DNA of 54,984 nucleotides, the filler included, from Sphacelaria rigidula (Eukaryota), in the NCBI GenBank assembly GCA_964200075.2. It is 6 parts of 6 records of this genome, joined end to end, with 100 filler letters (N's around TTAATTAATTAA, not from the genome) between each part and the next. Parts side by side here need not be neighbours in the genome. Positions count along the whole stretch, not along the records: positions 27,546 to 36,625 come from CAXNAA020009350.1; 5 more parts are not named here. One strand, given 5' to 3'. The notes beneath the pieces are model-generated. The model was given only the letters and a program-made list of their open reading frames with translations, ran no database searches and was not told the DNA's origin. The translations under genes were made by a program, and so were the position numbers. The stretch's first letter is position 1. Every line of letters begins with the position of its first letter. Positions 22,269 to 45,905 of the stretch are shown one piece after another.

Positions 22269-22333
<65 letters not shown>

Positions 22334-22595
22334 TTTGTTGTGTGCCTTCGACGTATTTGTTTCCCTTTCGTCTGCACCTGATTGAAGAGGTGGTAGACCT
22401 CATGCATGTGCGGAGTGCGCGGAACTACATGTCGATCGACTGTCGACAGTACCCTGCCACTCTATTCCTTTCTATTTTTGTTCACTCCACCTCAGTCCTC
22501 AACAACTATGCTGTCTCACACGACGAAACGTTCACTTTTCAACCCCCACATCTCTATGTTACCGGTCTGGCGCAAATTGCGCAAATGTACAAGCC

Positions 22596-25500
22596 ATGTC
22601 TGATATCAACCGCCCCTTGACTTCATCGGAGCACGATGTCACGAAGGACGGTGCGCTCCCTATAGACAATGGTGAAACAACCGTACAGCCAACCCAAATC
22701 ATGCGTAGTGAGACGATTGGCAACAACGAACCGGAACGTTTCGATGTTGATGATGCCGTTGTTGCAGGACGTATTTTCAGGGACGTGAGTGTGGATGAAG
22801 ACAATCAACAACGTTTTCGTGAGATTGAGAGTAGAATGCTGGTTAAGAGTGGCTTTGATCATTCGCTTTAATTTAGTCATTTTTTCATTCCGTGTGTGCT
22901 TTTCTTCGTCTCTAACACTAGCGTGTGCTTACAGCTACACGTCGATATCCTACTCAGGGATATCAAGGGCCTCAGTGGCGAGCTACTAAATAAAGCATAT
23001 CGGGCTTCACGGAGGTGCATTTCGGAACTGAAACTATTCAGTCACTAATTGACTGCTTTTCACTCTCAATCGTATTCTCTACTCTCAATCTCACGAGAAC
23101 ATTGTTAATCCTCCTCCACATGCTCACCCTGACCCCGTTGGTGCCCACTCCCCTGTACACCAACCAGCCACTCAAACCGCTGACGGTGTTCCCACTCTTC
23201 ATTCTCAGATGGCATCTCTCCACGTGAGCCCTAAAGCTAGGAAAACCTTTCCTGACGATGACCTCCGCACCCCACCAGGGCGGTACCTACAGAGCGCTGA
23301 TGCCCACCGCACAACTTGACAACCTTTTGGGAACGTTCTACAAGTTCCGGAGATCCCAAATAGCATCCAGTGGAGTGACTCAGGACGCGTTGCTTAGCCC
23401 AAAACCTAAGCGCCGCCACCTGCCTGTTTATTTTCTACTTCTGTAGTTTACTTCTCATCAGTCGGTACAATCCCACAGTCAGAAATAAACAATGACCGGT
23501 AATCCAGCGCAGGAGTTTCCAACAATTTTATGTCAACATTGCTTTTTCGCTCGGCCAGGTCACAAACATTACACACGTGAATCAACGGCGGCCATCGCGG
23601 GTTCAACCATATGGTGTGGGTTACCTGAATATGCTCACACTGCCTTGAAGGGTTCCAAGACAGTCGACGCCCGTGCACCGTTGCATGGCTATCAATTGAG
23701 CAGTGACCAAACCCAACGTTTTGATCCTGGATTTGATCCCCCAGTTTTACATTCACCAGGTACTGATCATATTCAACCGAATCCCCTCCCTTTCAAGGAG
23801 AGGAAGTTATGTAATGCAGTTTATCACGCATCAGGAGCTGAAATATCTTCTGGTACGATAGACACTGCTACTCCGACCGTTCATCGGGGAACAGAAAATT
23901 CGAAGCCGCACACTCAAGCACCCCCTAACTGCTGAAGTGCTCGGCTAACCACCCTACCGAGTTCTGCAAAAACTGCGGTACTCGGTTCCCTTTTATTTAG
24001 TAAGCGTAATTATTCCTTGAAGGGTCGCAACCGCAAAGAACCCATGCTTTCCGTCGCTCAGCGGGTTGGAATGGAGCCCCAAGTGACAGCGACTCAGGTG
24101 GTGCGCCAAGAGCGTGACCTAGGTTCGACTGTCCGAGAACTCATTGAAATAGCTCTTGGAGCCGCCGACCCTTTCGTGCGCTATACGCGTCATCCTAGGC
24201 GGGTTCCTCCAGATGATCATGTACATAACCCTGACGTAGCAAGCGCACGTGAACTCCAAGGAGGAGATTACGTGTGGGCTCACACAGATGAAAACCTTAG
24301 AGTGGAACAGGCCGGTACTCCCCAGATTTCGAACAAATCGTTACTGCTCCCTAACCACCCCGCGTGCACTGCGTTAGAACCCATTTCCGATAAAGCGTTG
24401 CTGTCTGTAGGGACAGAGACTTCGCCGACTGATGGATGTTCGCATCCTCGCCATGAAGTCACGTCAATTGTGTGTTCGTCACCAGGCAAACAAAGTGTTA
24501 CGCAACACGACTCGTGTCTTGACTTGCCCACGTTCGCCCCTTTAATAGACGCCGGGTTGAACAGTACGGCTTTACCAACCCCGCGTCCTGACGAATCGTT
24601 TCCAAAACCCTCCATGTTGGCCCTAACTAGTGATGGTATCGAGTTGATTGGCGTATCAAACTCAACACTGCGCCCCGATGAATCGTCCCCTGTTCCGACC
24701 AAGCTGGATAATGTAATTGATTCCGCTTTGCACATTGACGATTCACCCCCTCTGTTGGCCAATAAGGGTAAAACACCACGCATAGATCAGTTGTCGGGTC
24801 CAACCACGACAACTGCCCTTCCCCGGCATCGCCCCTCCGTTGCAGTATATGAGATTCAACCCTCGACTGATGAGACAAATATTCCAGACACAAACACTGA
24901 CACTCCATGCACGCACCATCCTTCCGACCAAAAGCTTTCCCACAGGATCATCAACGGGTGAATTTTAGCACCTTCGTCAAAAACGCAAAGCAGGATGTGT
25001 CGGATGTCTTACCCGAAGTCGAGCCCGATCTCGTCAGTGGTACTGCAACTCTGAATGATGCTTCTTTTACGACCAAGATAAGCTTTTTCACAGTGGAACG
25101 CGTGCAAGCTGTCATTTGATAGCTCTTGCACTACCAGACTCTGGTTCACCTCAAACATTCATTACAGCCAGCTGCTGGCAACAGGTGATCAACGCGGGTG
25201 CGGCGGACGAGCATTGTCTGTCCACCGTGCGCCCTCGTGTTTTTGGTGGGTTTGGTTCTTCCACATCTCTTACGGTCAATCAATCGGTGAGACTAAGTGT
25301 AAAATTTTACTAGGATACTACTCCCACTGCTCGGTTGTCCATATGGGCACTAATAGTGCCCGACGGTTCCATGTCTTTTGGTGTTTTGTTGGGTCGAGAT
25401 AGTTGGCTTCGTTTTTCCACACACACGTACACGACAGACACACCTGTCTCGAATCGTCCAGTCACAGGCAAACTGTCACTGGGTTCTTTCGACACTGATT

Positions 25501-27445
25501 CGGGAAGTCATGCTTATGAGGATGACCCCACGCAAACAGGTAGTGCTTTCCGTCTGTACTATGTTGGTATAGTCTCGCTTTCTCGTGGACCCCAACTTAT
25601 CCAAGTGGTCCTCGTGAGACGCAATGGATCGCCCGCCCTCACCGGACATTATTTGGTCGAATTGCTCAAACCTGACGAAGCACAGGTTGGTCCGTTTGAA
25701 CAGACCGAAGTCTTTGTCCACGAAGGTAGGCAGGCCATTTACCTCACGTCCCCTGCATGTTTCGATATACTCACCGATCAGTTGTTGGGTTATGTTCAAG
25801 CACCTCTAATGCGAACCACCCTGTCAGATGTGTGCCCCCCGGCGAACAACAAGTCGCCGACCGCCCTCCCGAAATCCACGCCCCCCCCTCCGCCACACAT
25901 GCCTGACCCCATGGTGGTGACAAATCCACCAGATGCGCCTGATCCTCAACCGCCAACTGCATTACTGGATAGATTTTCTTCAGAACAACTCGCCAGTTTT
26001 CAAAAGGTGTGGGATGACATTCCCCCTCACTTACGGCACATTGTTTTTGATCTATCTGGCGATGGTTGGACACCCACTGTAATCGATAGATTGAGATTCA
26101 TCTTGATTAGATATTCTGAACGGTTTTCCACTGCACCCTTGGATTTAGGTCGATGTACCACGACACCGTTTAAGATCGAGATTCCTGATGGCACTCCGCC
26201 TATCACTATGCGTCCGTACCGTACGAATCCCCTCTTAGCGGATAAGATCCCGGTAATTCTCGATGGTTACTTATCTGCCAGTTTAATTCGGCACTCGACG
26301 TCTCCGTGGGCCTCGACTTTAGTAGTCGTCCGTAAGAAGAATGGTAAAATCATACTGACGGTCAATTATCAACGATTGAACGCTGTCACCAAAATCGCCC
26401 CGCTGCCACTTATTGACTCTCTTGGCGGGGGTAAAGTATTTTCGAACTTTGGCATGCAGTCCGGCTATCACCAGCTCGTGATGGATCCGAATTACATTGA
26501 GCTAACAGCGTTTTGCACACCATCAGGTTTATACGAGTGGCTGGTTACACCACAAGATGCCGCCGGAGCTCCAGGTGCATTTCAACGTGTAATGTTCCGC
26601 GTAACTGATGGATTGCCCAAATGCCATATGTACCTCGGTGACTGCGGTGTGCCACGACTCCACACCGGCTGAACACGTCGAACAGTTGGCATCATTCTTT
26701 AATCGGTTTGAACAACACAACTTGAAACTCGCCCCCTCCAAATCCCGCATTGGCGCCACGAAGATTGAGTTCTTGGGACATTGCATCGCCCCCGAAGGTC
26801 GTAGCCCAAACCTCGACAAGGTCGCCGCACTCTCCGATATGCCCATGCCACGGGAGATTTCTCAACTGCGTTCCTTGTTGGGAGGTCTAAGCTACTACAG
26901 ACAGCACTTGCCAAACCTTGCCCAAACGCTGAAACTCCTCACCACCCTCCTCAAAAAAGGGGTGGAATTTGTGTCAACATTGGAAATGGAAAAAACCATA
27001 CGCCGCCTTCTTGACACCCTTTCGCGCCCGCCGATTCTCGTCTTCCCCGACTGATCGGCCGCGGAGCAGGGTTCCCGCCCTTTCCGGCTCCACACAGATT
27101 CTTCGAAAATTTCGATTGGCTGCACATTAGAAGAGGAGCAAGTCGATGCTACTGTTCGTCCCATTGTCTTGTCTGTCTGAGTCGCACCACTTTTCCGAAT
27201 GAACAGAATTGGTCTGTCATGGAACAAGAGGTCGGCGCAGTTGTTTGGGGCGTGCGACGTCTACGTCAGTATTTGTATGATATCCCGTTTTTGATTTCTA
27301 CCGATCATAGGTCTTTGGAAAGCCTTGCCAAAATGGCGGAACACAACGCTAGGGTCCAACGCTGGTTCGAAATCCTGTCGTCTTACAACTTTCAACTGAA
27401 GTACCGCACAGGTCCCCAGAATGCAAACGCCGACTTTCTGTCACG
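22596..27445 (+). mobile_element. Degenerate Ty3/gypsy LTR retrotransposon (gag-PR-RT-RNase H), truncated at scaffold end
   Basis: Protease ALPDSGSPQTFI (~25125). RT motifs STSPWAST, VNYQRLN, SGYHQ, TAFCTPSGLYEW and YLGD (broken YxDD). RNase H LHTDSS, EQEVGAVVWGV and TDHRSL. Multiple frameshifts and stops. The gag-like ORF is interrupted by MITE A. Confidence 0.92.
22807..23106 (+). mobile_element. MITE family A copy 2, inserted in gypsy gag, TSD AATC
   Basis: Both TIRs intact. AATC lies at 22803-22806 and at 23107-23110. Confidence 0.88.
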
Positions 27446-27545
27446 NNNNNNNNNNNNNNNNNNNNNNNNNNNNNNNNNNNNNNNNNNNNTTAATTAATTA
27501 ANNNNNNNNNNNNNNNNNNNNNNNNNNNNNNNNNNNNNNNNNNNN
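27446..27545. other. Artificial scaffold spacer
   Basis: Same spacer. Gypsy RNase H lies on the left and an unrelated copia RT on the right. Confidence 0.97.
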
Positions 27546-28318
27546 TTGGCGAAGGAATACGAAGTAGAGTGGGGAAAGAGTATCCCCATCGCTGTTGGTG
27601 CGAAGCTTGAAGAGTTCAGTGTAGAAGAGCAGGCAACGGAATTTCCGTTTCGAAAATTGATAGAGTCACTGATGTGGCTGGCAACTCAAACGAGGCCAGA
27701 CATATCTAACGCAGTACGTGCAGTAGCGAGGTCCTGTGCCTCACCGAAACACCTCCATTGGCGTGCTGCACATGGTATTTTGGGGTATATGTTAGGCGAA
27801 CAAGTTCGCTGGGGATTTCTTTTCGTAGAGGAAGTATACAGGGGTTGAGCTTTCATGTTTTTGCAGACGCAGACTACGCAAGTAAGGCAGCTGATAGGCG
27901 GTCGGTATCAGGAGGGCTAGTCATGTGTGGAGGTGCATGTGTGTCTTGGTTTTCGAGGACTCAGAAGTGTGTGACGCTGTCCACAACGGAAGCAGAGTAC
28001 GCTGCGATGACAGATATTTTGAAGGAGGTACTGTTTTTGAGACAGGTTTGGCGTTTCATGTTGCCGCAGATGGGAATGGCATGCATCCCAGTGTTTGAGG
28101 ATAGTCAGGGAGCTATTCAGTTGGCAAAGAACCCAATCACAAACTCCAACTCCAAGCACATCGACGTACGGCATCATTTTATCAGGGAATTGGTTGGGAG
28201 GAAAGAGGCTTCGGTTATTCACGTGAGATCATAGTATCAACATGCCGATTTCCTCACTAAAGTGTTGCCGACAGAGTCTTTTGAGTTTCACCGTAATATT
28301 GTCATGAACATCATGTAG
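27546..28318 (+). mobile_element. Ty1/copia pol C-terminus (RT end + RNase H), degenerate
   Basis: Motifs LMWLATQTRPDI, FADADYA...DRRSVSG, LSTTEAEY, EDSQGAI, SKHIDVRHHFIRE and HADFLTK. One frameshift near 27790 and an in-frame stop at 28232. Confidence 0.95.
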
Positions 28319-28447
28319 AGTCTGCAAGACACTGGTTCATTGGGTTGGTCTGAGCTGGTTTGATTTGTTTTCGGGGACATTTATCCACCCCGGGCAAGTA
28401 GGGGTACGAGGCCATGGTTGCAATATTTTCAATTTTGCAATGAATTA

Positions 28448-28730
28448 TTTCAGTCTTCGACGGGTACGACCGGATTTGATTTCTTTTATTGCAAACAAAA
28501 TATTATTTCAATGGTTTCCGGTGTTAGATTTCGGTCTTCAACGGGTTCGACAAGATTTGATTCTTTGTTCCAGCAAATGAAATATTTTCCACTGGTTTTC
28601 GGTGTTGGATTTCAGTCTTCGACGGGTCCGACCGAATTTGATTTTTTTATTGCAAACAAGATGTTTTTCAACGGTTTCTGGTGTTGGATTTCGGTCTTCG
28701 ACGGGTTGAATCGAATTCTCTTTTCAGTAC
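28448..28730 (+). repeat. ~80-bp tandem repeat (about 4 copies) in copia 3' non-coding region
   Basis: 'tttc(a/g)gtcttc(g/a)acgggt' at ~28448, 28529, 28610 and 28689. Confidence 0.85.
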
Positions 28731-29199
28731 TGAAAGGCGTGAAGGGATGGATGAAAAGCATGAGTATGTCATGACGTATTGAGGAAAAGGACTAAAGAAA
28801 GAATTTTCAGTTCGCTAAGTAGATGGCATAACCAAATGTCTGTACAAGGGTGGGACGATTTTTTATTCGCTTGATAATATAGTATTGAATATTGTTTAGT
28901 AGGGTTTGACAATGGAGTAGAGTTGAGCCGTCAGTAGGAGGGCTAATCGAATATAGTCACACTCAATGATGGATACATGTAAGCAGGCCTGGATGCGAGG
29001 GAAATGGATTCTGTGATTGGACCATGACATATGGGTGAATGACATGTAATGAGATGAAGTTCTATTATTTAAGGTATACCCGATTTGTTGGTTGCAGCGA
29101 GGATCCGTTGAGGGGCACTCGCCATGTCGCGTGGCCAAGGAATTAGGCTCTGACGTGTTGTTTTTCTACATGAATGGATCTTCATGAGGGACCACGCCC

Positions 29200-30250
29200 C
29201 TTTTTGGCAGTGCACTTTTCTGGATTTTTACGTGTGGGTGGAGAGTAAAATACACATTAACCAACAAGGGAATCAATTCAACAACAGAGCTCCCACGACC
29301 TTTTCTTACCCATAGACCCCAGCGCTGAGTAGGAGATTCAGCCCTTACCCTACGGGTGGGTCGTGATCCTGCCTTGTCTGCGCAAGCGAAGAAGCTGCAT
29401 GGGTTACCGACCCCCTGCATCCTGACCACGATATACGGGGTTGACGTGCCGTCGCGGGTGTTCATAGTACCAGGCCCACGGGATTGAATATCCTACGTCG
29501 CAGGCAAATTCGACTGACGCTGGCGACATCGAATGGAATACTGTATAGTATGTTATCCAGCCGCTGTGACCCTACTATGGAATCGGTTCAAGGTTGGCAG
29601 AACAACCTCAACGAGCGTCGGGGGGCGCTGTGGTACGACGGCGACTCCGCAGTATACAGGGGTTCATGGCCGGTGGGGACGGATGACTGCTTCGGGGGAC
29701 CACCGCTGTGCAGAGCTCACGTCGCGATACGTCTCAGTGACACTGTACTCACTCCCGTGTTCGTGCCACCATAGGAGCAAATGTTGGAAAAGTTGAGGAA
29801 CCGCCGCATTTCAAATGCCATTGCGAGACATTTTGGTGTTCGGGTTCGCGAGAGGAAGCATGCAGACCCTACTTTGCTTAGTGTTCCATATTCTTCAGGT
29901 ATAGTTCCTCCAACTGTGCCGCGGGAGGGGGGCTGGTTCTCGTCCAACATCTAACTCATCATGAAATGAGTTGGGAGCACGCCACGAGTAGAAATCCAAT
30001 GGACTACGGATGTTCAGGCGAACGCAGTTTGACCCTTCAACGGCGAGAGTACTCCATCTGAATCATTCCCTCTTCCTTGGAGTGAACTGATGTCGATTCA
30101 GCACACCCCCCGTCGTCGACAGAGTTGAAGCAAGGAATGCTATGTCGCATGCCTATGTGGCTCCCAGCCTGATGAGCACCTCGGAAACATCTGGGCTAAG
30201 CTGTGCAACCGGTACTGTCGCGTGACTTCCGTGGAAAGGGATTAAAACAA
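29200..30250 (-). mobile_element. Highly degenerate Ty3/gypsy integrase/C-terminal remnant
   Basis: Broken minus-strand frames read ..LHSLAQM.., ..FNSV../..STTG.., ..VSLRR.., ..GPPK...PTG...YTAESPSYH.. in the order expected for a gypsy integrase C-terminus. Recognised by eye only. Confidence 0.45.
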
Positions 30251-30588
30251 ACCCTCACGTTTGCCATTTCCGTCATTGGAGATTAATACATCCAACCGAA
30301 TTATGCATCAGCTTTCTGTTTACTGTCGATCTGCACGGCTACTTAGCCTCGCACTAGACAGTGGAATGGAACAGTCGGACTGGACCGTCAAAACCCACAC
30401 ATTTTTTTTACCGTCATTGAAAAATCAAACAATTGCAACATCCACTGCACAGTATTTCGTCATCTCAGGCGTTCGATATCCAATCCAACTCCCGAAAATC
30501 TTCAAATCAAGCTAGCCAATCGCCGGGTATGGCCTAATCCCAACACTGACGGGGGGATGCACGTGATCTACCCGTGCACGTTACCCAC

Positions 30589-30954
30589 CAACGGCCTGTC
30601 GGGGCAAGGTTTTCGGACAGGGTGCCCCCTCCCGCCCCGCCTCCCGGATGGCAATTTTCCGAAAATCATGAATTCCTCGTTCTTGTGTTCATGCAATTGA
30701 AGAAGTTATGTACTTGGATTACGTAACACGTTTATACAAAAACACCTAAAAAAACGGAAGAGGCGGGTGGGATTCGCAAGGCTCGTATATTTGTTTTCGC
30801 TCCTTGCCCGCTACTTTGTCCCGATGACCTCGGATTCCGGCCACCCTCACACACATATGTGCACACCAACGCACGGCAGCCCCCCCCCCCTGACGACTGG
30901 AATCTTCGATCTTGGGGCCTGCACGTCCAAAACATTTTTCTTAGCACACCCCTG
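30589..30954 (+). mobile_element. hAT-like MITE family D (copy 2)
   Basis: CA..GG / CC..TG ends (caacggcctgtc / gcacacccctg), flanks tacccac / tatccac, and homology to 737-1070. Confidence 0.7.
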
Positions 30955-31849
30955 TATCCACGCACATGATTCGTGGCTCCGATAAGACACGAGCGCCGCC
31001 CTCGCCATGTCACGGTATGTACAACTCATCAAGCATCGCCTTTGTTGAACATATGTAGGAACCACCACCATCAACACCATATACACAGGTCGCATGATCA
31101 CTTTTCGTCAACCCCACTGTCATGGACAGCTAATTTAAATGTCGTCAGAGCGTAGCACATACAGACAACGTGGAAAAACAACAGATATGAAGTAGCACTC
31201 GCTGCGGTCAACACTGTACACAATGCAATAACGTATTTCGAGCGAGGGGGACGATGCCGTCAATTTGGTACGAATCACTACCGTTTCTCGGAGCACCATG
31301 AGTACGCCATAAGGCCCAATGCCCGAAGAGGGAGTCTTAATAGTGCCAGGTAGCGAACGTGTTGGTCACCGCCCACCGCACCATGCCAGCCCACCCCACA
31401 TCCATAACACATAATGCAGTCGCCCTCCTGACTCTTGCGCACCCTCCTTCGTCTACTGTAACACCCTTGGCCTGCGTTTCACGAAAGTCCTTCAGCGCGA
31501 ACTTTCCTTCTGTTTGCAGCATACCGTGATGGGACGAGAGGGTAAAACCCAACAACATGAGGGGCGTTCGTTGTGTGATTTATACTCGATAGCGAAGGAT
31601 TATCAGCAACAACAGTGGAGGCACGTGAACGGGAATAGCCGGAGGGTAACACAACAATGATTTTGCTTATCCGTAGCAAGGAGCGCGCGAGAATCGTGGG
31701 CCGACGGCGACTGCCGCCTTCCTCATGTCATCAGCACCTGTCACCCCGTGCAAGAGTGGCCACACACCAGGCAACAAATGGATCAAAAAGTGCGACTTGC
31801 CCCCGCCCACAATCGAAACACCCCATATGCACAACAGAATGGAACTTAC

Positions 31850-34800
31850 AGTCATCGCTCTTCTCGCCGTGCTTTTTGTCATCCTTCTTGTCCTTGCTCT
31901 TCCTGCCGCCCCTCCTCTTGTCATCCCTCCTCATCTTGCAGCAATCGCGCCTGTCGCAGTCACCGTCGCATGTGATGTCGCCACCGACAGACTTAAAACC
32001 CCTTGGGACAGCGGTAGTCGCGGCACTTCTCATCTTTCGCAACAGCCAGAGGGAACCACAAGTATGCTCAGTGTGAGACATCAATAGCTAGTAGTGTCCC
32101 CATCGCAGCAGTTGTAGATTGCATTGTTCAAAAATGACTTTTGCGATGCCGTGTACGGCGAGTCGTTCGCTCTGGCGGGGTAGCAGTTTTCTTGTGCTCT
32201 CACTCAAAGTTCATCCCGTGATTTTCTCGTAACACCTCCGCACTGTACACACTCCCGATGGCGGATACAGCCTTCACTGACTTCAACGCATGGTGAGGCC
32301 AACCTCGGCGCAGCGTAATATGAGTTCAAGAACGGGTGGCGATAGCATGAATGCCGCACTCGCTGTGCCAGTACAGCGGCACCGTGCACCAAGTTCACGG
32401 CACAAAATATTTCTCCCCAGCGTTTCAGTTCGCACGTTCGACCTCCGATTCAAACTACGGCACTGACCGCAACTGCAGGCATTGGTTCCCCGCAACCTTC
32501 ATCACCGCGATTGCCCGAGCGACGAGTCCTGTCGAAGTGCCTCGACGTCTCGTTGTCAAACAGTGTATCATCGCGCTTTTGAAACCATCAGGTTGGTGCA
32601 CCAACACATGAAGACTTGCGCACCACATACATAATACTGATCAACTAAGCATCACGAGGGCTATGTTTGAATGTACCAGATTGCTAGAACCACGGCACGA
32701 TACTCTACGCCGGGGGGAACCCCTCACCGCATTTGTCCGTTCGAACATATTCGACCACATTCCGGAGTTACACAAGCTTCGGGCATTCGCTCATTCTGGG
32801 CGCTCACCCTTCTTGCAGCATTCGCGCTGGTCGCACTTGCCGCGGCACTCCTTGTTACCGAGGCTAGAGAAGCCGCGGGGGCAGGTGAAGTCGTCCTTGC
32901 ACGTCTTCTTCTCTGTAACGGCAGCAGGTGACGAGCAAGAGCGCCGTCACGCGTATCGATCAACACCGGGTAACATTTTCAACATCGTGTGCTAGCTTGT
33001 GTTTGATTGTACCGGCAACACCATCTTGAATCTTTTTCATGTTTGGCCTGAAAAAAACCGAAGACGTTTTTCACGAAAAAACGTTTTACAGGGCGTGTGT
33101 ATGTATCCCCGAGTCCAATTTCTAACCCGCGATAATTTTCCGTGCCCAAGTTCGATAGGTCTCGCGATTGAACGATGTGCTTGCACTAACGTGAGGGATG
33201 TACGAGTTGCGATTCCCCTCCCACATCAGCGAACGACGTCGCAATTGTGCCAGCCATATTCTTCAGCCGCAATCAAATCTACTGTAGATCGTGATCGTAC
33301 GTGTGGCTTCCTCCAGAAAACTCACCCTTCTCGCAACAGTCGCGCTGGTCGCACTTGCCGCGGCACTCCTTGTTACCGAGGTTATGGTAGCCACGGGGGC
33401 ACTTGAAGTCGTCCTTGCATGTCTCCTTCTCTGCGACGGCCGATTGCATCAAAATACCGTCACTCGCGGCGCGTGAGAGTGTGTCGACAGAGTTATTGCG
33501 TGGTCGTGCCGATTTCATCATCAACTAGAATTGAGGCCGAGTATAATGAGAATCGTGGTGGACAGCATAAATGTGACTGGATTGTTACGCATATCGATCG
33601 GCATGGATGGGTGTTGCCCCAACACCTTGCACCCTATCGAAAACATCGGGAATTGTTTGCGTGTGTACTTCTGTGCATTACAACTCTACGCAGCGCTCAT
33701 GGGAGATGCCCACCTTTCTTGCAACATTCGCGCTTGTCGCACTTGCCACGGCACTTCTCGTCACCGACGTTCAGGAAGCCGCTGGGGCAGGTGAAGTCGT
33801 CCTTACACGTCTTCACCTCTGCGACAGACATGACAGTCGACGGTTGGGTGGCCTCGCGCCTAAGCAATATTCACGTGTACGCAATCACTAGATACAGCGC
33901 ACCGGTGCGATCATGGTGGGGGGTTCGTATACCATACTTCTTGCCACAGTTTGAACACCTTCCTTTCCCCAGGATGAACTTCAAGTCCCGAGGGGAACCC
34001 AGGTTACCCGTGGTGCACGCACGCCACACAGGATGGTATGTCGCACAAGGGCAGCACTCCCCCATCGTGTCCACTATCCCGTAAAACCCGCCTTGTTGTT
34101 TTTCACGTCCTCACTTTTGCGGGAGACAGAAACCACATCGTTCTCATTCAAACTCTCAAGTACATCTCCCGGGAGCCGAACCCGCAACTTTCCGATGTAC
34201 CGGTGTAATTGTGCCATCGGACTACCAAGTCCCGACGGAGAAGCACAACAACGTTCGTGTACTCGTGGGCAGACGTATCGATGTTCTATTTGTACTGAAT
34301 GTACTACGTGTGTCGGCGGCCAATCTGCAGAAATTGTTCCGCTGACTTCTACAGCCGAACGTGATAATGCGATAGCAGTCGGGGGTGTTTATTGCGTGGT
34401 TCACTCACCCTTCTCGCAACATTCACGCCGGTCGCAACGGCCGCGGCACTCTTTGTCATCGAGGTTCAGGTAGCCACGGGGGCATTTGAAGTCGTCCTTG
34501 CACGTCTCCTTCTCTGTGATGGCCAAGTGGACGGCATCAGACAAACTAGTGTTGCTCATGCGCCTACTGTTGTCATCAATTCCACAGGCAGCCACCGGCT
34601 CTGCACCGCCTCCATATCTACTCTGACCGAACGAATGTCATAAGACGTCGCGAGCTCTATGAAACATTCGCTAGCAACAAAGTTGTCACGTGGGAAAAAC
34701 TCAAGCTGCTTCATCATCGGAGAGTAGGTGTGCCGAAATAATATCGATACTACTATGAGTGGGACGTTCTTTGCCCCAAACCTCGTGCTTTCGCACATAC

Positions 34801-35197
34801 CCTTTGAGGACCGAAGGCTGGAAACCTCTGGAATACATCTAGGGAGGTCGGGAGGGATGGGGTCGTCCGTATGAAGTCATTTGTCTTGAATTTAGGTCAG
34901 GGAAAGCACGGGCTTTGAGTTGAACCTCCTCTTCGACAATTCACTGTTTACTTCTGATCAGCCCGCCGCGTGCATATATGCTACTCTCAAACTCTCATCG
35001 GGTTTGGAAAGAGGGGGGCATAGCCAACACGAGTGTAACCGTCGATGCATCATCCATCAGCGCCAGATGCAACCCTTCCGATGTCGCTCACCCTTGAAGC
35101 AGCACTCGTACTTGTCGCACTTCCCACGGCATCTCTTGTGGTCGTTACCGATTGACTTCCAGTCGCGCGGGCACGAAAAATCCTTGCACATGTCGCG
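31850..35197 (-). CDS. Cysteine-rich tandem-repeat protein; one 6-Cys module (C-x4/5-CP-x-G...C-x3-C-x4-CC) per exon
   Basis: GT-AG exons 35092-35197, 34409-34513, 33714-33818, 33326-33430, 32808-32912 and 31850-32033. The middle four are each exactly 105 bp, phase 1/1, e.g. EKETCKDDFKCPRGYHNLGNKECRGKCDQRDCCEK. The last exon has an apparent +1 homopolymer frameshift at ~31995-32002 and a K/D/R-rich tail. The start exon was not identified. Confidence 0.85.
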
Positions 35198-35554
35198 CTG
35201 CTCAATGGTGGGTGAGCGAAACGGTGTAGAAAATGGGCAATTAGCACAAAGTCATGTGATCAGTAAGGCCCTGCGATGACCGAAGTCGCGGTGTTTTGTC
35301 GAGAACATCATCATGGAAAAGTCGTAGGTGAAGTCACACAATGGTGTCGAGTCATCCTCCAGACTGCTGCACTGCACGTGGGCCACGCGCGGCTACGGTA
35401 CTCTGTGAAGCGTAGGAAGCACTCGCGAGGCATGCTTGCCCAGTTATACTGAAGGACAGTAGTGGGCGTGATTCACACTTTACAGTAGTAACAGTGTGTT
35501 CACGAATGAAATAATCACATGCCAAGTTCACGTGCTTTTCACGACAAACGTCAG

Positions 35555-36136
35555 TGCAAAGGGACGTCAAAACTATATTTCGTAGGCCCAAGATCGAAAA
35601 TTCGAGTTGTTGAGGGGGGGGGGGGGGGACATCCAACCTGCCGCCCCCTAGTTTTTTGCCGAGGCGTTGGCGGATGCGATCAGCTGCCTTGTGCCTTGAC
35701 GTGGAGACCGCTGAGATAATGAAAAACCGCCCCAAGCTCATCACCCATCATGATCACAATTATGGGATCGTGTTCCGTGTCGTGTGCGTCGACTACCCAC
35801 CACTTGCAGTCCGGGCAGATTTGGCGGGGCATGAAATAATGTTGCTACTCTGGGCTACAGGCTGCTGCTACCGTGCGCTCGTGTATTGTACACAGATTTG
35901 TGTGAGCGTTGTCGGCATCCGAGGTCACCGGGACAGGGTGGGCAAGGAGCAGAAGCAAAAACATGGAGCCTCGCAAAGCTTGCCAGACTTTTCGGTTTTC
36001 ATCAGTGTTCAAGTTTCTTTCAACAATGTAACAAAAACTTGAAAAAATATCATAAAATCATGACATTTTTCGAAAAATTGCCCTCCGTGGGGGGGGGGGG
36101 GCTCCGTGTCCGAATTTCCTGCTCGACAGACCCGTG
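35555..36136 (-). mobile_element. MITE family D (copy 3, longer)
   Basis: Reverse-complement homology to 737-1070 and 30589-30954. Confidence 0.7.
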
Positions 36137-36384
36137 GTCAGTGGGAGAGTTTATGCAGTATTGCACCCCCTGGGTATTGAATGCTCCTTACATACATATC
36201 TTTTTTTGCCTTGGTTCCTCGAAATCTAGGTGTGTAAAAATATTTCAGATCGTGCAACTTCAACGAGATTCGAACCCTCCAGAACGTCGGGAGGCGATAT
36301 TACCAACTGAGCCACTGGGGCCACCACCTGTTGGACTGCCCAACAAAGTCAAGGCCAAACCAGCTTAGCCACGTAGCTTCGCCA

Positions 36385-36625
36385 AACAGTCAGTCGATCA
36401 TCGAAATTGAGGATGAGGCTCTTCATTGAGGATGACTTGGAACATGAAAAACCCATACCCAAACTAAATCTTCGGAATATGGTTCCATGCCTTCACCTAC
36501 CGGTAGCTTTTGATACCTGCTACGCGCCCTACATATTCGGATTTCAGAACCCGAATCAACAACAAATTGTGCGAATTGAGGTTCAACTCCGAGATGAGGT
36601 TCAAGCCTCAAACAGTGCTTTCCCC
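36385..36625 (+). mobile_element. Foldback MITE family F, partial copy
   Basis: 'atcatcgaaattgaggatg...aaatcttcg.aatatgg.tccat.cct..acctac.ggtagct.ttga' matches 366-500. Confidence 0.8.
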
Positions 36626-36725
36626 NNNNNNNNNNNNNNNNNNNNNNNNNNNNNNNNNNNNNNNNNNNNTTAATTAATTAANNNNNNNNNNNNNNNNNNN
36701 NNNNNNNNNNNNNNNNNNNNNNNNN
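36626..36725. other. Artificial scaffold spacer
   Basis: Same 100-bp spacer. Confidence 0.97.
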
Positions 36726-36788
36726 TGTAGGGATGCGAGGTCAATGGTCTGATTATGGCATGCATGATCATGAGTACACCCCCCAGCT

Positions 36789-36936
36789 CTGGAAACCCCC
36801 GGATGTCTCGGGACTGTCAGCCTGTACAACTGTTCCGAGGCGACGCTCGTCGTCTGAGAGTTAACCCCTTGAGTACAAGCGTCGCCTCGGAACAGTTTCA
36901 CCAGCTGACAGTCCAGGAACATCCGGTGGCTTCCAG
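36789..36936. repeat. ~148-nt inverted repeat / hairpin
   Basis: Perfect 20-bp stem 36828-36847/36878-36897, plus 36811-36821/36904-36914 and 36799-36806/36919-36926. Confidence 0.9.
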
Positions 36937-37602
36937 GGGGTGGGCGCTTGTTCGCAGAACACCCGAAAAGCTCACTGAGTCAACCCCGTGTTTAAGTTTC
37001 CCACGGAAAATTCTGTCCCAGAACGAGACCCGAGAGGGGTAGAGTGATCATTTTGAGAGCTGTGATTGGTCACAAAGGTCAGTAGTCCACGCCCAGATGG
37101 ACTGCAGATGGGCTACTTCGCAGTCTACCCGTGTTTCCTATTTTGGTCTTCAACATTACCATTCAACCATAGATAACATGACCACAAGCAACGTGCTTTT
37201 TACTCCGCTTGTGGTTTTCGCCGCCTGCCTGATCGCTCTTGTGGGCCGGCATAGCTCCATACTGTCTGTGGTGTTGTGCAACACCAGGCAGAGACGTGAG
37301 CAGCATGCAGTAAACTGTTTTCAGTGGAGAGCGATTGCACGCTGACTGCTTCTTACCGTTATATCCAGCAAAGATATTTAACATACATACCGACTGCACG
37401 CATTTGACTGCAGGGTAAAAACGTGTCAGGGGTTGTCCGAGACTATTTGCTATAAGGATGCCCATTATTCACATGAGCATGAAAAATGTGTTTTGTGTTG
37501 TGAAAAAACACCTGTTTTGAACCCCTAATGTGGCACAGTCCATCTGGGTCCATCTATGGGGGGTTCGCAGTCTGAGGGTTAAGGGTCTGCTCAAGGAGGT
37601 GG

Positions 37603-37947
37603 TAGGGTTGAAAATTGCGTATCGAAACATCGAATATCGATCGCTATTTTCGGCAATCCTCAGGATCGGAATCGGGAGCTGGTAAGCCGATGCTTTCGAT
37701 ACCCAAACTGGCTCTCTCAGGCGCCCCGCCTACTAAAAAGAGGAGGGGGTCGTGCATTCACATAATCGATCCCGCCCATTTCTTGCGAAAGTGACCGTTC
37801 AAAAACACGTCAAAAGGTCCAGAAAACCAGAAAACCGGTTGTTTGACCGTTTTTCGAGTATCGATAAAAATATCGATATCAACGTTTTCTCGTCGATATT
37901 TTTCAAAATCATATCCAACATTTTATCCCGTTCGATTTTCAACACCG
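37603..37947. mobile_element. hAT-like MITE rich in ATCGAT/TCGA motifs
   Basis: 13-bp imperfect TIR (tagggttgaaaat / attttcaacaccg). 8-bp flanks ggaggtgg / gtaagtgg match at 6 of 8. Confidence 0.55.
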
Positions 37948-38249
37948 GTAAGTGGGGAAAAGTGGTTGTTGAGCGGGAACATTTTTTATGGTTTTTGAAA
38001 CCGGCAAATCGATGACTTATTCAAAATGGGGACAGGGGTAAGGCCAAAACACGCACAGAAAGCAGATTACAGTCGGCATCACCAAGCGCCCCTGTGCTAC
38101 TGCCGTAGGGCGAGATTGAACACCAAACAAGTGCTGTAGGACACCTCTAACGAGGGTATTGTACAAAGATGGGGTCCTCAACGTGTTGCTCTTGCCGGTA
38201 AATTTGTAACCAGAATTATTGTGGGATGCCGACAGGCTGCGACCTACAG

Positions 38250-40300
38250 GCGGAAGGCAATCTGAAATAGTATTAAAAGTAGAGGAGATTTTGCTGTGTT
38301 TTGAAATAGCTCAATGCCGCCCACGGGAAGTGGCGTAACTCTCTCAATCTTTGCCTTACGAACGACCTGAAAGCATAGTACGACAGGTTATATTCCAGGC
38401 CGTTTCATTGTCTCGAGCGTGCATTTGGGTGTGTACGGGGGGTTTATACGGGGCCCCACAGAAGCACATTTGAAACCTAAAAAGTAAGACTGTGATCCCT
38501 CTCTCGGAAATCGAAGACTCTCGTACGCCCCCCAGGACACCCACATGACTTATTTTTAACCTCAGGGTCGTTCTTAATACGCCGCAAACGTGCGCAACGG
38601 TGAATTCCCTACCCTGTTGCAGTGTGGATGACTGTTGTTGCGCCGCTTTTCTGGTGACATCCTCGATAAATTTCGTTGCGAACCAAGTCTGTCTACGCGC
38701 TGTTGTGACAGTGCCCTGAGGCTATGCAGCTACTGTGCTTCATTTGCAGCATCTTCGGCCATGGCGCCGTTGTCCTGCAGTGCTGCTGTAGATCCGGAGT
38801 GTTGGACTCCAAAACCCAGAAGTCGAGGGGTTTCGGAACAGTCTAAAGCCAGTATTAAAGTGATAGCTCCATTTTTTGCGAACCGGGACGTGGTTCTGGA
38901 GCGAATCCTCGACCAAGTTCGGAAAAACGCCCGACGGACAACGGAGCCTGGACGGACCAGGCACTCATGTTCCATAATTTCAGGTTCCTTGCTCAAGGCT
39001 GCTTCTACTCGTAAACAAAGAAAAATCTGATGGAACTACTTTTTGGTCATTCTGCGTCATTCTACGCCCCAAAAGAGGGCTAGGCGGATGTTGATGATGT
39101 TGGCACCTTGGAATGCCTTACTATACTCGTTGACGCGGTTCCAGAACACATTTACGGTTCCCGGGGGCCGCAACTGCTTTTTTGGCCGAACTTGCATTTA
39201 TTGTCCAGGGTCAAAAACGGTCAAGTCCAGAAGAAACTCACAGTGCCGATTCTCGATGTTTATTTTTGGCAAAAGCTCGAGCATCTCTATGATGGAGTCG
39301 GCGACTGAATTGCGTAGGTGCTTGTTAAAATGTACTCAGTACAAAATTGCACGTTGTTCGAATGTTCTGCCTATGCATCCAACTGTATGCAGACAGAACA
39401 GACAAAACGTACTGTACTTACTGTCTGTATTGGACGTTGATAAACTTTTTTTTTACGTCGTAGTGCATGTAGAACAGTAGGTACTGCAAGCCGCACGCTG
39501 CCCAGTTCGAGAAGTTGGCCGCTTTTTGTCGTTCTACGCTTGCAAATTCGCTCGGATCCACGCGAAAGGAACGAATCGGATTGAGTCAATTCCGCCGCTT
39601 TTTCTCGTTCGATCCATTGTTTTTTCGGTACGATATGCCGTCAGACTTGTTCAATAAATCAATGCAGCCGAACATGCCTCCATATTTACTTAACGAAATT
39701 GGGAGTGATGAGTCTACAGGCTGTCTTATTTAGGTATGGCGAAGAGATCATAGCATCTTGGGTCCGTCATGGTGCACTAGCTCCACCACAACATTATCAT
39801 GGCAACCGTGATGGAGCAGATGATGACAATACCGTGTTTGTTGGTACTGAGGAATCAGTGGGGACTGATGGTGATGGTATTTTCAAAGACGAATTGTCGG
39901 TTACTTCGGCGCTACCTCATGTCCTCGATGCAGTGCCTGATAGATGTGGCATAGTTCCCTGCGACAGGATGTATGCGATATTATGACTTCTTCACTGTTT
40001 ACGTGTAATCTGCGAAGTTGTAGTCCATGACCAAGTACAACTCCGCCTCTGAAAATTCACGCCTACCACGTCGCGTGAAGAACGTGAACCCTGTAAGAAG
40101 CAGTTGGACAAAAAACTCTTGTTAACAAAACTGCCCACCAAAAGGCTTTTTCTCCCACTAATTAATTTCTCAAACTCCACGAGGAGCAACCGTATCTTTA
40201 GCTCAGGGAATGTCTTTGTTTTTGGCCAGCGATAATGGGCCGCGGGGTTAGAAAAATCCGATCTGATGCATGTGGGTCCACGCCATTCATATTCCTAATT
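38250..40300 (-). pseudogene. Unclassified degenerate coding repeat (copy 1)
   Basis: 38250-38670 is homologous to 54170-54780 on another scaffold. Long stop-interrupted minus-strand frames continue to ~40300. Outer limits are approximate. Confidence 0.5.
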
Positions 40301-40389
40301 GCTTCACTTCATTTTTCTCGTTTTTGCGCTTTCCACCGCGAAGGTCCAAGACAGTAATGTTAGCTTTTTCGAGCGAGAATGTTTGTTGT

Positions 40390-40525
40390 TGTGCTGTCAT
40401 CCCATCTATTTTTGACGCCAGTCTCACCTTTCGGTATATGTGGGCGTATCAGCCGGGGTTGCAGGAGGACGGCCGACACACGATTTTTATTTTTATTTCA
40501 GTACTCCACTTCCCTTCTGCGGCGC
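40390..40525 (-). mobile_element. SINE family A 3' fragment
   Basis: 'gtcatcccatctatt.t.gacgccagtct...gtgggcg.atcagccggggt' matches 1770-1850. Confidence 0.7.
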
Positions 40526-40723
40526 AAATAACTGACACACCAATTAGATAAAGGTCCAACGGTTGTGAGGTGCTACCTTTGGCAACGTATACTCGACATT
40601 TCAAGGTATGCCTCTGCACCGCACCTACAGCCATCACGCTTGAGGTACTTTTCTTCAGTGGCCTTGGCGGGATACTGGTCGAACAGCGAGCATCGCAGTG
40701 AACGTTTCGCACGACTTTTTCAC

Positions 40724-42077
40724 ACGTCGGACGAGCACGAGTATGACTCGTGGCACTCGCACTCGTTGGGCTGCTCGTTGACCGTAAAAAATAATAGGGT
40801 CGAGTACTCGAGTCATTGCTCGTTGTGGAAAAAGTTAATAGGGTGAGCACTCGAGTCACATTGCTCGTTATGAAAAAATTAGTAGGGCTAGCACTCGAGT
40901 CATTGCTCGTTGTGAAAAAATTTAATAGGGCGAGTACTCGAGTCATTGCTCGTTGTGGGAAAAATTTATAGGGTGAACATTCGAGTCATTCCTCGTTGTG
41001 GGAAAAAAGAATAGGGCGAGCACTCGAGTCATTGCTCGTTTTGGAAAAAAATAATAAGGCGAGTACTCTATTCATTGCTCGTTGTAGAGAAATAAATGAC
41101 TCGAGCACATGAGTCATTGCTCGTGATGAACAACTTGAGTGGAGGAGTCAGCAATCCGACGAGCAAATAATTATAATGAGCTGTTGGACGATCTAGAACC
41201 TAGAATATTCAAGTTCATATGCAGATCTGCTCGTAACCATGTTTTCGTGAGATTGAGAGTAGAGGATACGATTGGAAGTGAAAAGCGGTCAATTGATGAA
41301 TGAATCGTCTCATTTCCGAAATGCCCCCCCACGAGGCCCGATATATTTTCTGTGGTAGCTTGCCCCTGAGGTCCTTGACATCCCTGAGTAGGATATGGAC
41401 GTGTAGCTGTAAGCACGCGCTAGTGATGGGGGCAAAGAAAAGCACACATGGAATAAAAAAATAACGCAAGTTAGAGCGAATGACCAAAGCCACTCTCAAT
41501 CGGCGCTCTACTCTCAATTTCACTAAAATGTTGTTAGATGTACAAGCGTCGAGCTCCAAAGCTCGTTTTCATTTTATTCACCCCCCCCCCCCCCCCCCCC
41601 CGCAGTTTTATTTTATCGGGGGCGAGGATTTTCTGTGTCGGCATATTTTAGGGGGGGTCAAAGAGNNNNNNNNNNCCTCCACTTTCCCTAAAATTGTGTT
41701 ATATGTACAAGCGGCGGGCTCCAAGCCTCTTTTTCCTTTTTTTCCCCCCCCCCCCCCCCCCACAGATCAGAGTTCTACTTAAGCGGCGGAGAGTATTTTC
41801 TGAGTAGTAAATTTATAGGGCGAGCACTCGAGTTATTGCTCGTCGTGCAAAAATGAATGACTCGAGCACATGAGTCACTGCTCGTTGTAAAAAACAGCAA
41901 TGGCTCGAGCACACGAGTTCTTGCTTGTTGTAAAAAAACGTAATGGCTCAAGCGCACGAGTCATTGCTTGTTGTAAAAAACGTAATGACTCGAGCGCACT
42001 GGTCATTGCTTGTTGTGTTTTCAAAAACATTCACGAGTGCACTCGCTTCGACGAGTAATGAATGACTCGTCCGACGT
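40724..42077. mobile_element. Non-autonomous TIR element filled with ~40-bp CTCGAGTCATTGCTCG repeats, with nested MITE A
   Basis: 12-bp perfect inverted ends ACGTCGGACGAG (40724-40735) and CTCGTCCGACGT (42066-42077). Arrays lie at 40790-41130 and 41810-42060. Confidence 0.65.
41235..41535 (-). mobile_element. MITE family A copy 3
   Basis: Both TIRs present. Reverse-complement homology to 22807-23106. Confidence 0.85.
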
Positions 42078-42349
42078 ATTGACTTTTTTATGCGTTCGTA
42101 TCGGGTACTCCCATGTTCTATCGTACCCACCAATACCCGTTTGCGTCGCATGACCTATGTCATGTTCTGTATGACGTGGCCTGTATGTCTCAAGCCAGCG
42201 AACGTGAAGGCGTTTAGTAGGTCTTGTGGGCTGAGGTTGGGTTGCCTCGCCCATGTTGTCAGTTCTGTCCACAACCCACGTAACACAGAGTAAGCTCGAC
42301 GCGTTGTATGTCACAAAAGGAAGTCAACCTCGTGGTGCGTTCGCTGCCG

Positions 42350-43320
42350 ATTTGTGAGCAAACCACTGTCCTAGCGTAGAAACGGCCGTGACCCATGTCC
42401 TGATGATCCTGACGCGCATCACTGCTCTCAAGGCCCACGTGGCGCGGTGGCTTTATCAGCGGTAAAGTATGCGTGGAGCTTTCAGCTTTCTATACGACGG
42501 TGGAGCGGTACCAAAGTTGTGTGAATTGGTAGTATGGGGTCTAGGAAGGTCTTACAGCAGATGTTCAACGGTTTATTGCATGCTGATGTGGGACGTCATC
42601 AGCTGTGCGCGTGGCGAGCATGTGAAGATGAGTGGCTGACGCCCGAACACTTTGAAGCGTTGATGTGAAGTATCGATAGAGCGCCTACCTACCCCAAGGT
42701 TAAAGCCTGGGCTGTTTTGCCCCCCGATTACATGCCGCCAAGAAAGCAACCGAATCAATACGACGATTCTGCGTGGAAAAAGTCTGGTGTAATACCAGCC
42801 CATCTATCTATGGGTCGAATTGAAGAGGCCCATTGGCAGGGCCTCAGTTTTTCCGGCAAACATGAACGGCCACGTGTCTTGGATCAATGACAGCATGGTG
42901 CACTCTTGCGTGCATCAGATAGAACGAGGCCGAAATTTGCTGCAGTGACCGATCTTGACGTGTCTTTTCTCAAGGTCGACTCATCTGTTCCATCATGAAG
43001 CAGAGCGGCGTATCGACAAGGTAGCAAATCAGGCTGTGCGGTCTAAGGTATGGTCAAGTTTGTTTATCGTATTTTGCTGGCCCACTGTACTTTTCGATTG
43101 TTCCACATACCAGGTTGTCCGCTCGTGCGTTTTCCTGTCTCATACAGTTTATTGCTCGTCGTACATGCAATTCCCGTATCGATTAGGATAGGATACCACC
43201 TGGTATGTCACCACGCTGATGAGAGTGTCATCGTCCATCACAAGGATACGTGAGGTCAGCATTGATAATTGGTGGTATTTCTAGCTTCAAAATCTGGTGA
43301 CTAGCCAACAAGATAGCTCT
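42350..43320 (-). mobile_element. Highly degenerate Ty3/gypsy integrase remnant
   Basis: Broken frames ..KLDHTL.., ..GWYYT.., ..VPLHRRIES*K.. are only weakly reminiscent of a gypsy integrase C-terminus. Confidence 0.3.
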
Positions 43321-43878
43321 TTTGGCGCGTTTCACCTGGGGCTGAGGCTGCATGTTGTATGTTGTATGAGAAGAGCACAAAGATTTCAACATTTACAACA
43401 TGCCCGTGTTGGTTGACTACCTTGAACCATTGTTACGGCGGATATCGACTGTATGTGTAGTAGGCGTTTTGCAGCACGCGTGGCAAGTGCAGTAGGTCTT
43501 ATTCCATTCGCATGTTGGTGTTGTATTCCAATCGGGCGTCCTTCACCGGAGCCCACCGCCCACAGGACTTCCATCACCCAGCAACTCTCGTTTAGCTATC
43601 TAGCCAAGACTAATTAATAACAGAGCTATCAGCCACCACTTGGAGACATCTCGCGTGTAAGTAAGTCAAGAGCACCTCTTCTGCACGTGAAAGTGAGTCC
43701 CTGCTTGGACTTGCGATGCAGTGCTTATCGGACTCGATGGTCTGTTACTCACGAGCTCAAGGGTCATTCCTCTCGACTGCGATTGTTCAATGTGGCCAGC
43801 CGCTGACCTCGTGTCACCCCGGACCGGGCGTGTTCTTTGAGAGTGACGCCAGTATCACCTCGTGATCAAACCACGACA

Positions 43879-45428: not shown

Positions 45429-45805
45429 ACAACGGTGTTGTGCCTTAACCAAATTTCCTACGGGTGGACAGATTTACAACACGACCGGCAGCGGGAGGCA
45501 GTGCGATGGAACAGGGAGCAGAAGTAGGTGATGTCGGCTCGCGACCAATGACCGCCGCGCCGACTACATCTGATCTGGGATCGCGTAGGATAAATGGATC
45601 GGGATCACTATGACCTTTGGAACAGAGCCACCAAGAATTTTCAGCGCAAGAACCCATGCCGTGGGGTGGACATCGTCTGCTGTCTCCAGGTATCATGCTT
45701 TCACGATACCTCTCGGGGGTGGACGGGTTTGCAGCACGATTCACGGCGGGGGAGAATGCGGCGGAGACGAGGTAGCAAGCATAGGAGGTCGCCTCTCCAC
45801 CAATG

Positions 45806-45905
45806 NNNNNNNNNNNNNNNNNNNNNNNNNNNNNNNNNNNNNNNNNNNNTTAATTAATTAANNNNNNNNNNNNNNNNNNNNNNNNNNNNNNNNNNNNNNN
45901 NNNNN
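45806..45905. other. Artificial scaffold spacer
   Basis: Same 100-bp spacer. Confidence 0.97.

Follow-up and report, generated by a model that had tools for sequence, protein, structure and literature searches.

Can a run of equal-length, in-frame exons in the brown alga Sphacelaria rigidula be a system for diversifying a protein, or has it arisen by duplication of exons within a conserved gene family? The question is posed by a gene on the minus strand of positions 31850–35197 in a window of 54,984 nucleotides (the whole stretch of DNA that was analysed, from assembly GCA_964200075.2), which an original prediction had described as six exons, each encoding one six-cysteine module, and had interpreted as a candidate variable-repeat system. 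The gene is genuine and spliced, and one six-cysteine module is encoded per 105-base exon. It is probably a member of a multi-copy brown-algal family of tandem six-cysteine modules, grown by tandem exon duplication and encoding a putatively secreted disulfide protein, with an insertion in this particular copy. The part of the window that contains the gene is 27,546–36,625 (CAXNAA020009350.1); other window positions come from other records, joined by filler.

The locus was compared with assembled contigs from sequencing runs, X1 and X3 being DNA-like and X6 and X7 RNA-like. The RNA status of X6–X9 is a tool's guess, which the behaviour of X6 and X7 also suggests; no run is recorded as RNA. Contig depth sums paralogues and repeats, and is given below as such and not as a measure of copy number or expression level. 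Statements on exon-exon joints refer to the best 15 of 48 joints. A module profile of 33 positions was searched against 1.84 billion cluster representatives.

Structure of the gene

The minus strand of 31850–35197 contains six module-coding stretches, as had been predicted. The four central exons are exactly 105 bp long and in phase 1 at both borders, and the phase-1 introns expected on either side were confirmed by AG and GT at the borders (...cag/...aag acceptors, GTGAG/GTGGG donors). A central exon opens with two bases completing the last G codon of the preceding exon and closes with a G of the same kind, and each 105 bp exon is translated into one 35-residue module with six cysteines, C-x5-C-P-x-G-x8-C-x3-C-x4-C-C. 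This strict pattern was matched four times in the whole window, every time within a central exon. Over all module stretches the acceptors are pyrimidine-rich and end in ...cag or ...aag, the donors are GTGAG, GTGGG or GTAAG, and the introns measure 578, 590, 283, 413, 774 and 340 bp.

Exon 1 (35092–35197) encodes the first-type module, RDMCKDFSCP...CCFK followed by a split-codon G; its acceptor is cag (35200–35198) and its donor GTGAGC, with phase 0 at its start and phase 1 at its end. The joint 34513>35092 supports its downstream border. Intron 1 (34514–35091, 578 bp) contains a high-copy dispersed repeat, as judged by depth in the DNA-like runs. The middle modules follow on exon 2 (34409–34513, EKET...GY...CCEK type), exon 3 (33714–33818, EVKT...GF...CCKK type), exon 4 (33326–33430, EKET...GY type) and exon 5 (32808–32912, EKKT...GF...CCKK type), all of 105 bp and phase 1-1. 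All four were placed by their borders and by repeat family D4; in addition exon 3 is seen in the joint 33430>33714, exon 5 in the joint 32912>33326 and exon 4 in both. Exon 6 (31850–32033, 184 bp as assembled) carries the last-type module and a K/R/D-rich tail ending in DD, between an aaag acceptor (32037–32034) and a GTAAGT donor at 31849. The stop codon, T|AA, is interrupted by intron 6 (31510–31849), and the chain in its intact frame ends ...D-D; the stretch 31400–31509 is the start of exon 7, which begins with the bases AA that complete the split stop and continues as 3' untranslated region.

Exon 1 is not the first coding exon. A coding exon upstream is expected because the exon 1 acceptor is conserved before R-D and relative P0023, which has the same border before 'RD', lacks a methionine there.

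Splicing of the module exons

Contigs from X6/X7 contained the joints 34513>35092, 33430>33714 and 32912>33326, which coincide with predicted introns 1, 3 and 4 and have CT..AC ends, equivalent to GT..AG on the minus strand. Further joints start from the intron 5 donor at 32808 (32031/32033/32036>32808/32813), and no joint for intron 2 is among the 15. None of these joints occurred in contigs from X1/X3. Exons are joined at the predicted borders in the RNA-like runs and not in the DNA-like runs. Intron 6 is bridged by X7 contig 24 (420 nt), which links 31852 to 31509 with 110 letters on each side and originates from a paralogue, differing at 13 other letters. Loose contig ends beside exon borders, for example after 32808 and 35092, decode to the starts or ends of other modules in the same phase. 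Together with the joints, these ends argue that the phase-1 module-to-module splice is used across the family.

Symmetric exons of equal length keep the frame in any subset, and the original prediction had proposed that exons so easily exchanged produce a variable repertoire through skipping, duplication or recombination, whether somatic or by alternative splicing. Joints that could be read in this way were present in X6/X7, some linking non-adjacent exons (33428>35092, 32914>35096 and 32030>34405) and one running backward (33431>33333, going back 99 bases). However, the matching sides of these joints are only 18–32 letters long, the exons are 78–89% identical to one another, and thousands of contigs, many of them paralogues, match at 90–99% likeness in the runs. 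For these reasons the unusual joints cannot be assigned to this locus and provide no evidence of exon skipping; they are indistinguishable from paralogues or assembly chimeras, and the comparison of exon order covered a single complete locus.

A narrow multi-copy family

The module profile matched 30 proteins at E ≤ 1e-3 and nine at E ≤ 1e-10, and none at E ≤ 1e-30. The close relatives are single-exon open reading frames (ORFs) on short ENA or Logan contigs, plus two spliced partial proteins, P0001 and P0002. These two were also the only ones with a name among ten relatives looked up, both being entered as 'unnamed protein product, partial [Sphacelaria rigidula]'. In all 12 of the genomic-ORF relatives the reading frame opens with a translated acceptor ([AVTS]-[ED]) and closes with a translated donor (G, mostly G-E), and since these borders are kept in every case the plan of one module per exon is family-wide. 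The spliced P0002 consists of a first-type, one middle and a last-type module only; it is shorter than the gene described here, and module number consequently varies between members.

Four further proteins, P0016, P0017, P0018 and P0028, match nearly the whole module. On alignment with the module by hhalign, P0017 scored a probability of 94.9% (E 4.5e-8) and P0018 87.0%. Judged by eye, P0017 looks like a signal peptide, three modules with Thr-rich linkers, one membrane helix and a tail. The other three, P0016, P0018 and P0028, are longer unnamed proteins in which a less strict module, C-x2-[FY]-x-C-P-x-G-[YW] ... C-C, is repeated four to nine times. One of these proteins is located on a 690-kb ENA contig, and the three may be signs of a broader family of such modules, as yet unnamed, elsewhere among eukaryotes. 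Weaker profile matches were mostly Sushi or bacterial repeats, which have only the [FY]-x-C-P-x-G-[FY] hairpin in common with the module.

Other searches yielded no further members. A word-index search with P0002 gave no matches among longer proteins and only itself among those of near length, and the exon 1 ORF gave no candidates. The module pattern matched 95 metagenome stretches and six viral stretches, none of which was confirmed in either set; a 16-base exon motif found at 120 metagenome loci was discarded as chance, as none of these loci encodes the module. A literature search outside supplementary files found no description of the family; Supplementary table 2 of PMC3341825, a list of non-LRR/TPR candidates in Ectocarpus, may be relevant to it. 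The family is multi-copy, brown-algal, narrow, undescribed and probably lineage-specific.

Conservation of the modules

The repeated unit (repeat family D4) is 127 nt long, comprising the exon and its splice signals, at 76–87% identity. In the adjacent 200-nt intron flanks no similarity beyond that of shuffled sequence was detected (12 comparisons, z −1.6 to +1.4), which upholds the predicted divergence of the introns. Among the six exon pairs the ratio of non-synonymous to synonymous substitution (dN/dS) was 0.30–0.48, with dN of 0.10–0.21 and dS of 0.22–0.54. The GC content of third codon positions was 0.76–0.91 in the module exons vs a GC of 0.49 for the window, and such codon bias constrains synonymous sites, which accounts for the young appearance of the exons beside old-looking introns. 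Purifying selection and strong codon bias act on the modules.

Two subtypes take turns along the row of middle modules, E-K-E-T...G-Y...E-K and E-V/K-K-T...G-F...K-K, and both recur in relatives; this alternation hints at duplication of a two-exon unit. An alignment of 19 family members shows little or no variation at the six cysteines, at P11 and at three positions occupied by glycine or aspartate, and 15 of 34 positions never vary in 18 middle modules. The invariance of the cysteines was as predicted, whereas a concentration of variation in the loop was apparent only weakly: mean entropy across the 18 modules was 0.81 bit in the loop vs 0.64 bit at other non-cysteine positions, and the most variable sites are scattered (positions 10, 29, 13 and 16, the first three of which lie outside the loop). 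The family is conserved, and not hypervariable.

These data bear directly on the diversification proposal, which we regard as very improbable. In its favour are the symmetry and equal length of the exons, the difference in module number between P0002 and this gene, the unusual joints and the precedent of exon-shuffled LRR and TPR arrays in candidate immune receptors of Ectocarpus (PMC3341825). Against these stand the low dN/dS and the many invariant positions. The introns are unrelated and consequently offer no sign of a recent exchange of exon-intron units, and NB-ARC, ROCO, kinase or other signalling or recognition domains were not found by Pfam on any exon product. A variable-repeat system was accordingly not sustained.

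Identity of the module

No Pfam family scored above threshold for the six window modules or for the 19 family members. The sole recurrent similarity below threshold was to Shisa_N (PF13908), at E 0.029 for one of the six window modules (14.9 bits vs a cut-off of 22) and at E ≤ 1 for five of the 19 members, the best of these at E 0.0012. A profile search of the PDB returned nothing below E 0.1, the nearest entries being factor H (0.14) and Shisa-3 (0.18). An AlphaFold model of one module, built with 19 aligned sequences, had a mean predicted local distance difference test score (pLDDT) of 75.1 and a predicted template modelling score (pTM) of 0.39, and displayed short strands and one short helix. 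Comparison of this model with the PDB by Foldseek (no matches at E ≤ 10) and with 48,161 chains by VIA-align (none at Z ≥ 2) is uninformative at a length of 34 residues. The ESM Atlas provided no usable lead, with a best value for P0002 of 0.77 by features and a template modelling score of at most 0.40 by structure, and a best value for P0017 of 0.80. As had been stated earlier, no named domain can be given to the module, on the basis of the Pfam, PDB-sequence, Foldseek and VIA-align searches.

Several assignments were considered and rejected. Membership of Shisa_N/STMC6 was dismissed on a score below the gathering cut-off and the lack of a membrane helix or Pro-rich C-terminus in exons 1–6; EsV-1-7 on the absence of a model match at E ≤ 10 (six modules) or E ≤ 1 (19 members); EGF-like, cEGF and Sushi on the absence of a whole-module model match in the family; and metallothionein and TNFR on composition and Pfam. 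The Sushi proteins P0014 and P0021 were reached by the profile only through a hairpin of 16–20 residues. The translations of exons 1–6 contain no hydrophobic stretch, and the chain ends in its K/R/D-rich tail and a stop.

A surplus base in exon 6

When exon 6 is spliced in phase the translation runs to ...CPKGF and then meets TAA at 31995–31993, which is 143 nt ahead of the last exon junction. The rest of the last module (GFKSVGG...CC and the basic tail) lies in a different frame. The break arises because the run GGGGTTTT (31995–32002, minus strand) holds one base too many, and relative P0024 has the same last module and tail in a single uninterrupted frame. The sixth module of the original prediction is out of frame as assembled, and the peptide quoted for it had silently dropped one base of the run.

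The base at 31996/31997 was omitted in contigs accounting for 526.6 of 566.1 depth in X1, 519.1 of 519 in X3, 1850 of 2835.7 in X6 and 4034 of 6887.8 in X7, many of these contigs being paralogues. X1 and X3 each had one contig without the surplus base at approximately single-copy depth (40 and 34.5, respectively), and the window's version of the run was kept by about 39.5 depth in X1, also close to single-copy depth. As every X3 contig at this place and these contigs in X1 and X3 are without the base, it may be an allele or a homopolymer consensus error. Three readings of the surplus base are compatible with the contigs: an allele present in the source, a copy that is dead, and a consensus error.

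It is possible, although on balance we doubt it, that this copy is a pseudogene, the family being functional and this locus dead through the frameshift. The early stop in the assembled sequence and the near single-copy depth in X1 that retains the window's version point in this direction, as do retrotransposon remains and high-copy repeats in the window around the gene and within it. On the other hand, the gene is otherwise undamaged in its exons, splice sites and frames and shows codon bias, and the X3 contigs, together with the near single-copy contigs of both DNA-like runs, lack the surplus base.

A proposed secreted protein, probably built by exon duplication

The reading that we favour is that of a family of tandem six-cysteine modules which grew by exon duplication. 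The protein would be soluble, and its chain would consist of a first-type module, then four middle modules in which two subtypes alternate, then a last-type module and finally a short, highly charged tail with many basic residues. Small disulfide modules on phase 1-1 exons classically multiply by tandem duplication. Because each middle module here is its own 105-bp exon between phase-1 introns, the array most likely arose, and changes in length among paralogues, by frame-keeping tandem exon duplication or unequal crossing-over. Each module may fold as a small three-disulfide unit of beta-hairpins and a short helix; the even number of invariant cysteines and the conserved proline, glycine and aromatic residues point to an extracellular disulfide module, as do the mean pLDDT of the model and the recurrent similarity below threshold to the N-terminal Cys domain of Shisa, which is extracellular. 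The best hint that the module type is of this kind is the apparent architecture of P0017. The protein would enter the secretory pathway by means of a 5' exon upstream and would have an extracellular role, for instance in the wall or at the surface, where its charged tail could attach to anionic wall polymers. In this copy the one-base insertion in the last module would lead to a truncated or dead allele, if it is not a consensus error.

A number of observations weigh against this explanation. Scans from ATG to donor on the minus strand (35198–42000 and 35198–54984) yielded no credible exon running from a methionine to a donor with a hydrophobic core, and the signal peptide that had been sought on a first exon was thus without a credible candidate over 35198–54984 of the window. 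Secretion is suggested by one distant relative and the cysteine pattern. In composition the chain carries an unusual amount of charge (K, D, E, R), and its tail resembles a nuclear or nucleic-acid-binding signal no less than it does an anchor for polysaccharides. The last module could not be produced from this copy as assembled. The predicted structure has the low pTM given above and matched no solved fold, and a disulfide pattern is unreadable from such a model. Finally, X6 and X7 are called RNA by a tool's guess and by behaviour only, and depth in the contig data proves neither copy number nor expression level.

The charge, the very hydrophilic composition and the missing signal peptide are also what would be expected of an intracellular protein that binds metal through cysteine thiolates, or of a nuclear protein, zinc-finger-like or metallothionein-like, with the K/R-rich tail as a nuclear-localisation or nucleic-acid-binding signal. 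EsV-1-7, the large Cys-rich family known from brown algae, is described as a probable zinc finger. Such a protein is nevertheless unlikely here: no EsV-1-7 or zinc-finger Pfam match was found at the E values quoted above, a conserved histidine is absent, and P0017 carries the module in an apparent ectodomain. Exon 1 is internal with a conserved acceptor, so the N-terminal part is simply missing from the chain that was examined. Cysteine density is about 17%, with conserved aromatic, proline and glycine residues, a composition typical of disulfide mini-domains.

Plant and animal antimicrobial polyproteins are built as cleaved tandem modules, and the tandem, near-identical modules of this gene, rich in disulfide-forming cysteines and with dibasic or charged junctions, could likewise be a precursor cut between modules (...CC-E/K-K | E-K/V...) into 35-residue defence or signalling peptides, with exon number setting the dose. 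The family also seems strongly represented in the RNA-like runs, a weak point as contig depth is a poor measure. This is an improbable arrangement, given that the modules abut without a spacer or recognisable processing site, that the net charge of the middle modules is near zero by count, unlike most cationic antimicrobial peptides, and that the first-type and last-type modules, which differ from the others, and the tail look like parts of a single folded chain.

Other features of the window

Very high-copy dispersed repeats are situated in intron 1 at about 34712–34999 and at 35576–35700. Their summed depth in X1/X3 was 5.6e4–4.2e5 vs about 40–80 in adjacent bins, and in X6/X7 the same repeats reached only tens to hundreds. 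ORF fragments related to the dispersed repeats occur at about 602–1039, 30732–31025 and 35614–36368 (repeat D15). Linked single-base differences were observed at 31555–31668 and 32954–33271, carried by one contig at approximately half the local depth in both X1 and X3 (for example 20.6 of 50.8); these blocks look like two haplotypes of the locus in the X1/X3 samples.

Elsewhere in the window, reverse-transcriptase fragments (RVT_1, E 7e-6 and 5e-4, both below cut-off) were found at 25314–27054 on the plus strand and a copia-type gag fragment (E 1.1e-5, below cut-off) at 43814–44233 on the minus strand. An exon of the Mpv17/PMP22 family (PF04117, E 2.4e-7, 31.1 bits vs a cut-off of 27) with a GTGAGT donor lies at 46149–46235 on the minus strand; if the two parts of the window adjoin in the genome, it would limit the room left for the missing 5' exon of the Cys-module gene. 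The best hydrophobic candidates for a signal-peptide exon were rejected, one at 35964–35872 that falls in a dispersed repeat and one at 46235–46149 that falls in this Mpv17/PMP22 gene. Tandem arrays have a 43-nt period at two places and an 81-nt period with 3.3 copies (40772–41136 and 41764–42025; 19176–19465; 28447–28707), and there are several long (CA)n microsatellites, for example at 6773–6839 and 22262–22336. At intervals of ~9,181 bases (9083–9182, 18265–18364, 27446–27545, 36626–36725 and 45806–45905) there are two 44-N runs separated by 12 bases, which are filler joins, not assembly gaps; 10-N runs at 2555–2564 and 41666–41675 look like scaffold gaps.

Comparison with known modular systems

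The brown-algal precedent that had been invoked for this gene is real, and is the closest system within that group of organisms. According to the Ectocarpus report (Zambounis et al., 2012; PMC3341825), LRR (ROCO) and TPR (NB-ARC) arrays have one repeat per exon on in-frame exons of identical length, and when the genome was screened for in-frame exon pairs of equal length hardly any turned up outside LRR and TPR loci. The present gene resembles these arrays in being from a brown alga, in its one repeat per equal-length in-frame exon and in belonging to a multigene family with differing repeat number. It differs in that the repeat is a six-cysteine mini-domain, neither LRR nor TPR, without an NB-ARC, ROCO or kinase part, and in that the signature of diversifying selection described there is not shared, dN/dS here being below 1 and loop variability low. 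Since the screen hit almost only LRR and TPR loci, the present family would add one more class to these, and from a different order. The stronger version of this idea, to which we give little credence, is that of a third exon-modular class besides LRR and TPR in the Sphacelaria lineage, whose interchangeable 105-bp phase-1 exons would be reassorted among many paralogues or spliced combinatorially into six-cysteine surface or secreted proteins of variable length, with a new domain and possibly a part in recognition or defence.

In Shisa-3 (5m0w) an ungapped F-x-C-P ... C-x-G-x-C-x2-R-x-C-C match extends over 26 positions, and the modules of relative P0017 precede one membrane helix, as in Shisa/STMC6. 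STMC6 proteins are defined (PMC6125347) by a Cys-rich domain followed by a single transmembrane helix and a Pro-rich C-terminus. The proteins of that group are animal proteins; the modules here are in tandem, have neither a membrane helix nor a Pro-rich tail, and space the first cysteine otherwise. EsV-1-7 (IMM) repeats form a large family of short Cys-rich repeats in brown algae with unknown function and a probable zinc finger. The present family is like them in being short, Cys-rich and brown-algal, and unlike them in having no conserved histidine and no Pfam match.

A further parallel in gene structure is with class 1-1 modules, a term attributed to Patthy (cited in PMC3341825 as Patthy, 1999), which reportedly include the EGF-like, cbEGF and Sushi arrays that animal extracellular proteins carry on phase 1-1 exons. 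Phase-1 introns flank the module here on both sides, and the small disulfide modules (about 35–60 residues), the symmetric phase-1 exons and the tandem exon duplication are shared with these arrays. Partial matches to Sushi, cEGF and factor H share the central [FY]-x-C-x-x-G-[FY]-x-x-x-G hairpin motif; however, the cysteine spacing ends C-x3-C-x4-CC, unlike EGF or Sushi, and the hairpin alone aligns.

The result is a tidy family-level annotation and not a new mechanism. The module is a small and nameless domain, with no Pfam family, solved relative or fold match and only about 15 close relatives among the 1.84 billion representatives. The gene is a clear case, outside animals, of modules duplicated on phase 1-1 exons, and is one more candidate beside the very few equal-length in-frame exon arrays known from brown algae. 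A role at the wall or surface, if true, would be relevant to the construction of the brown-algal extracellular matrix.

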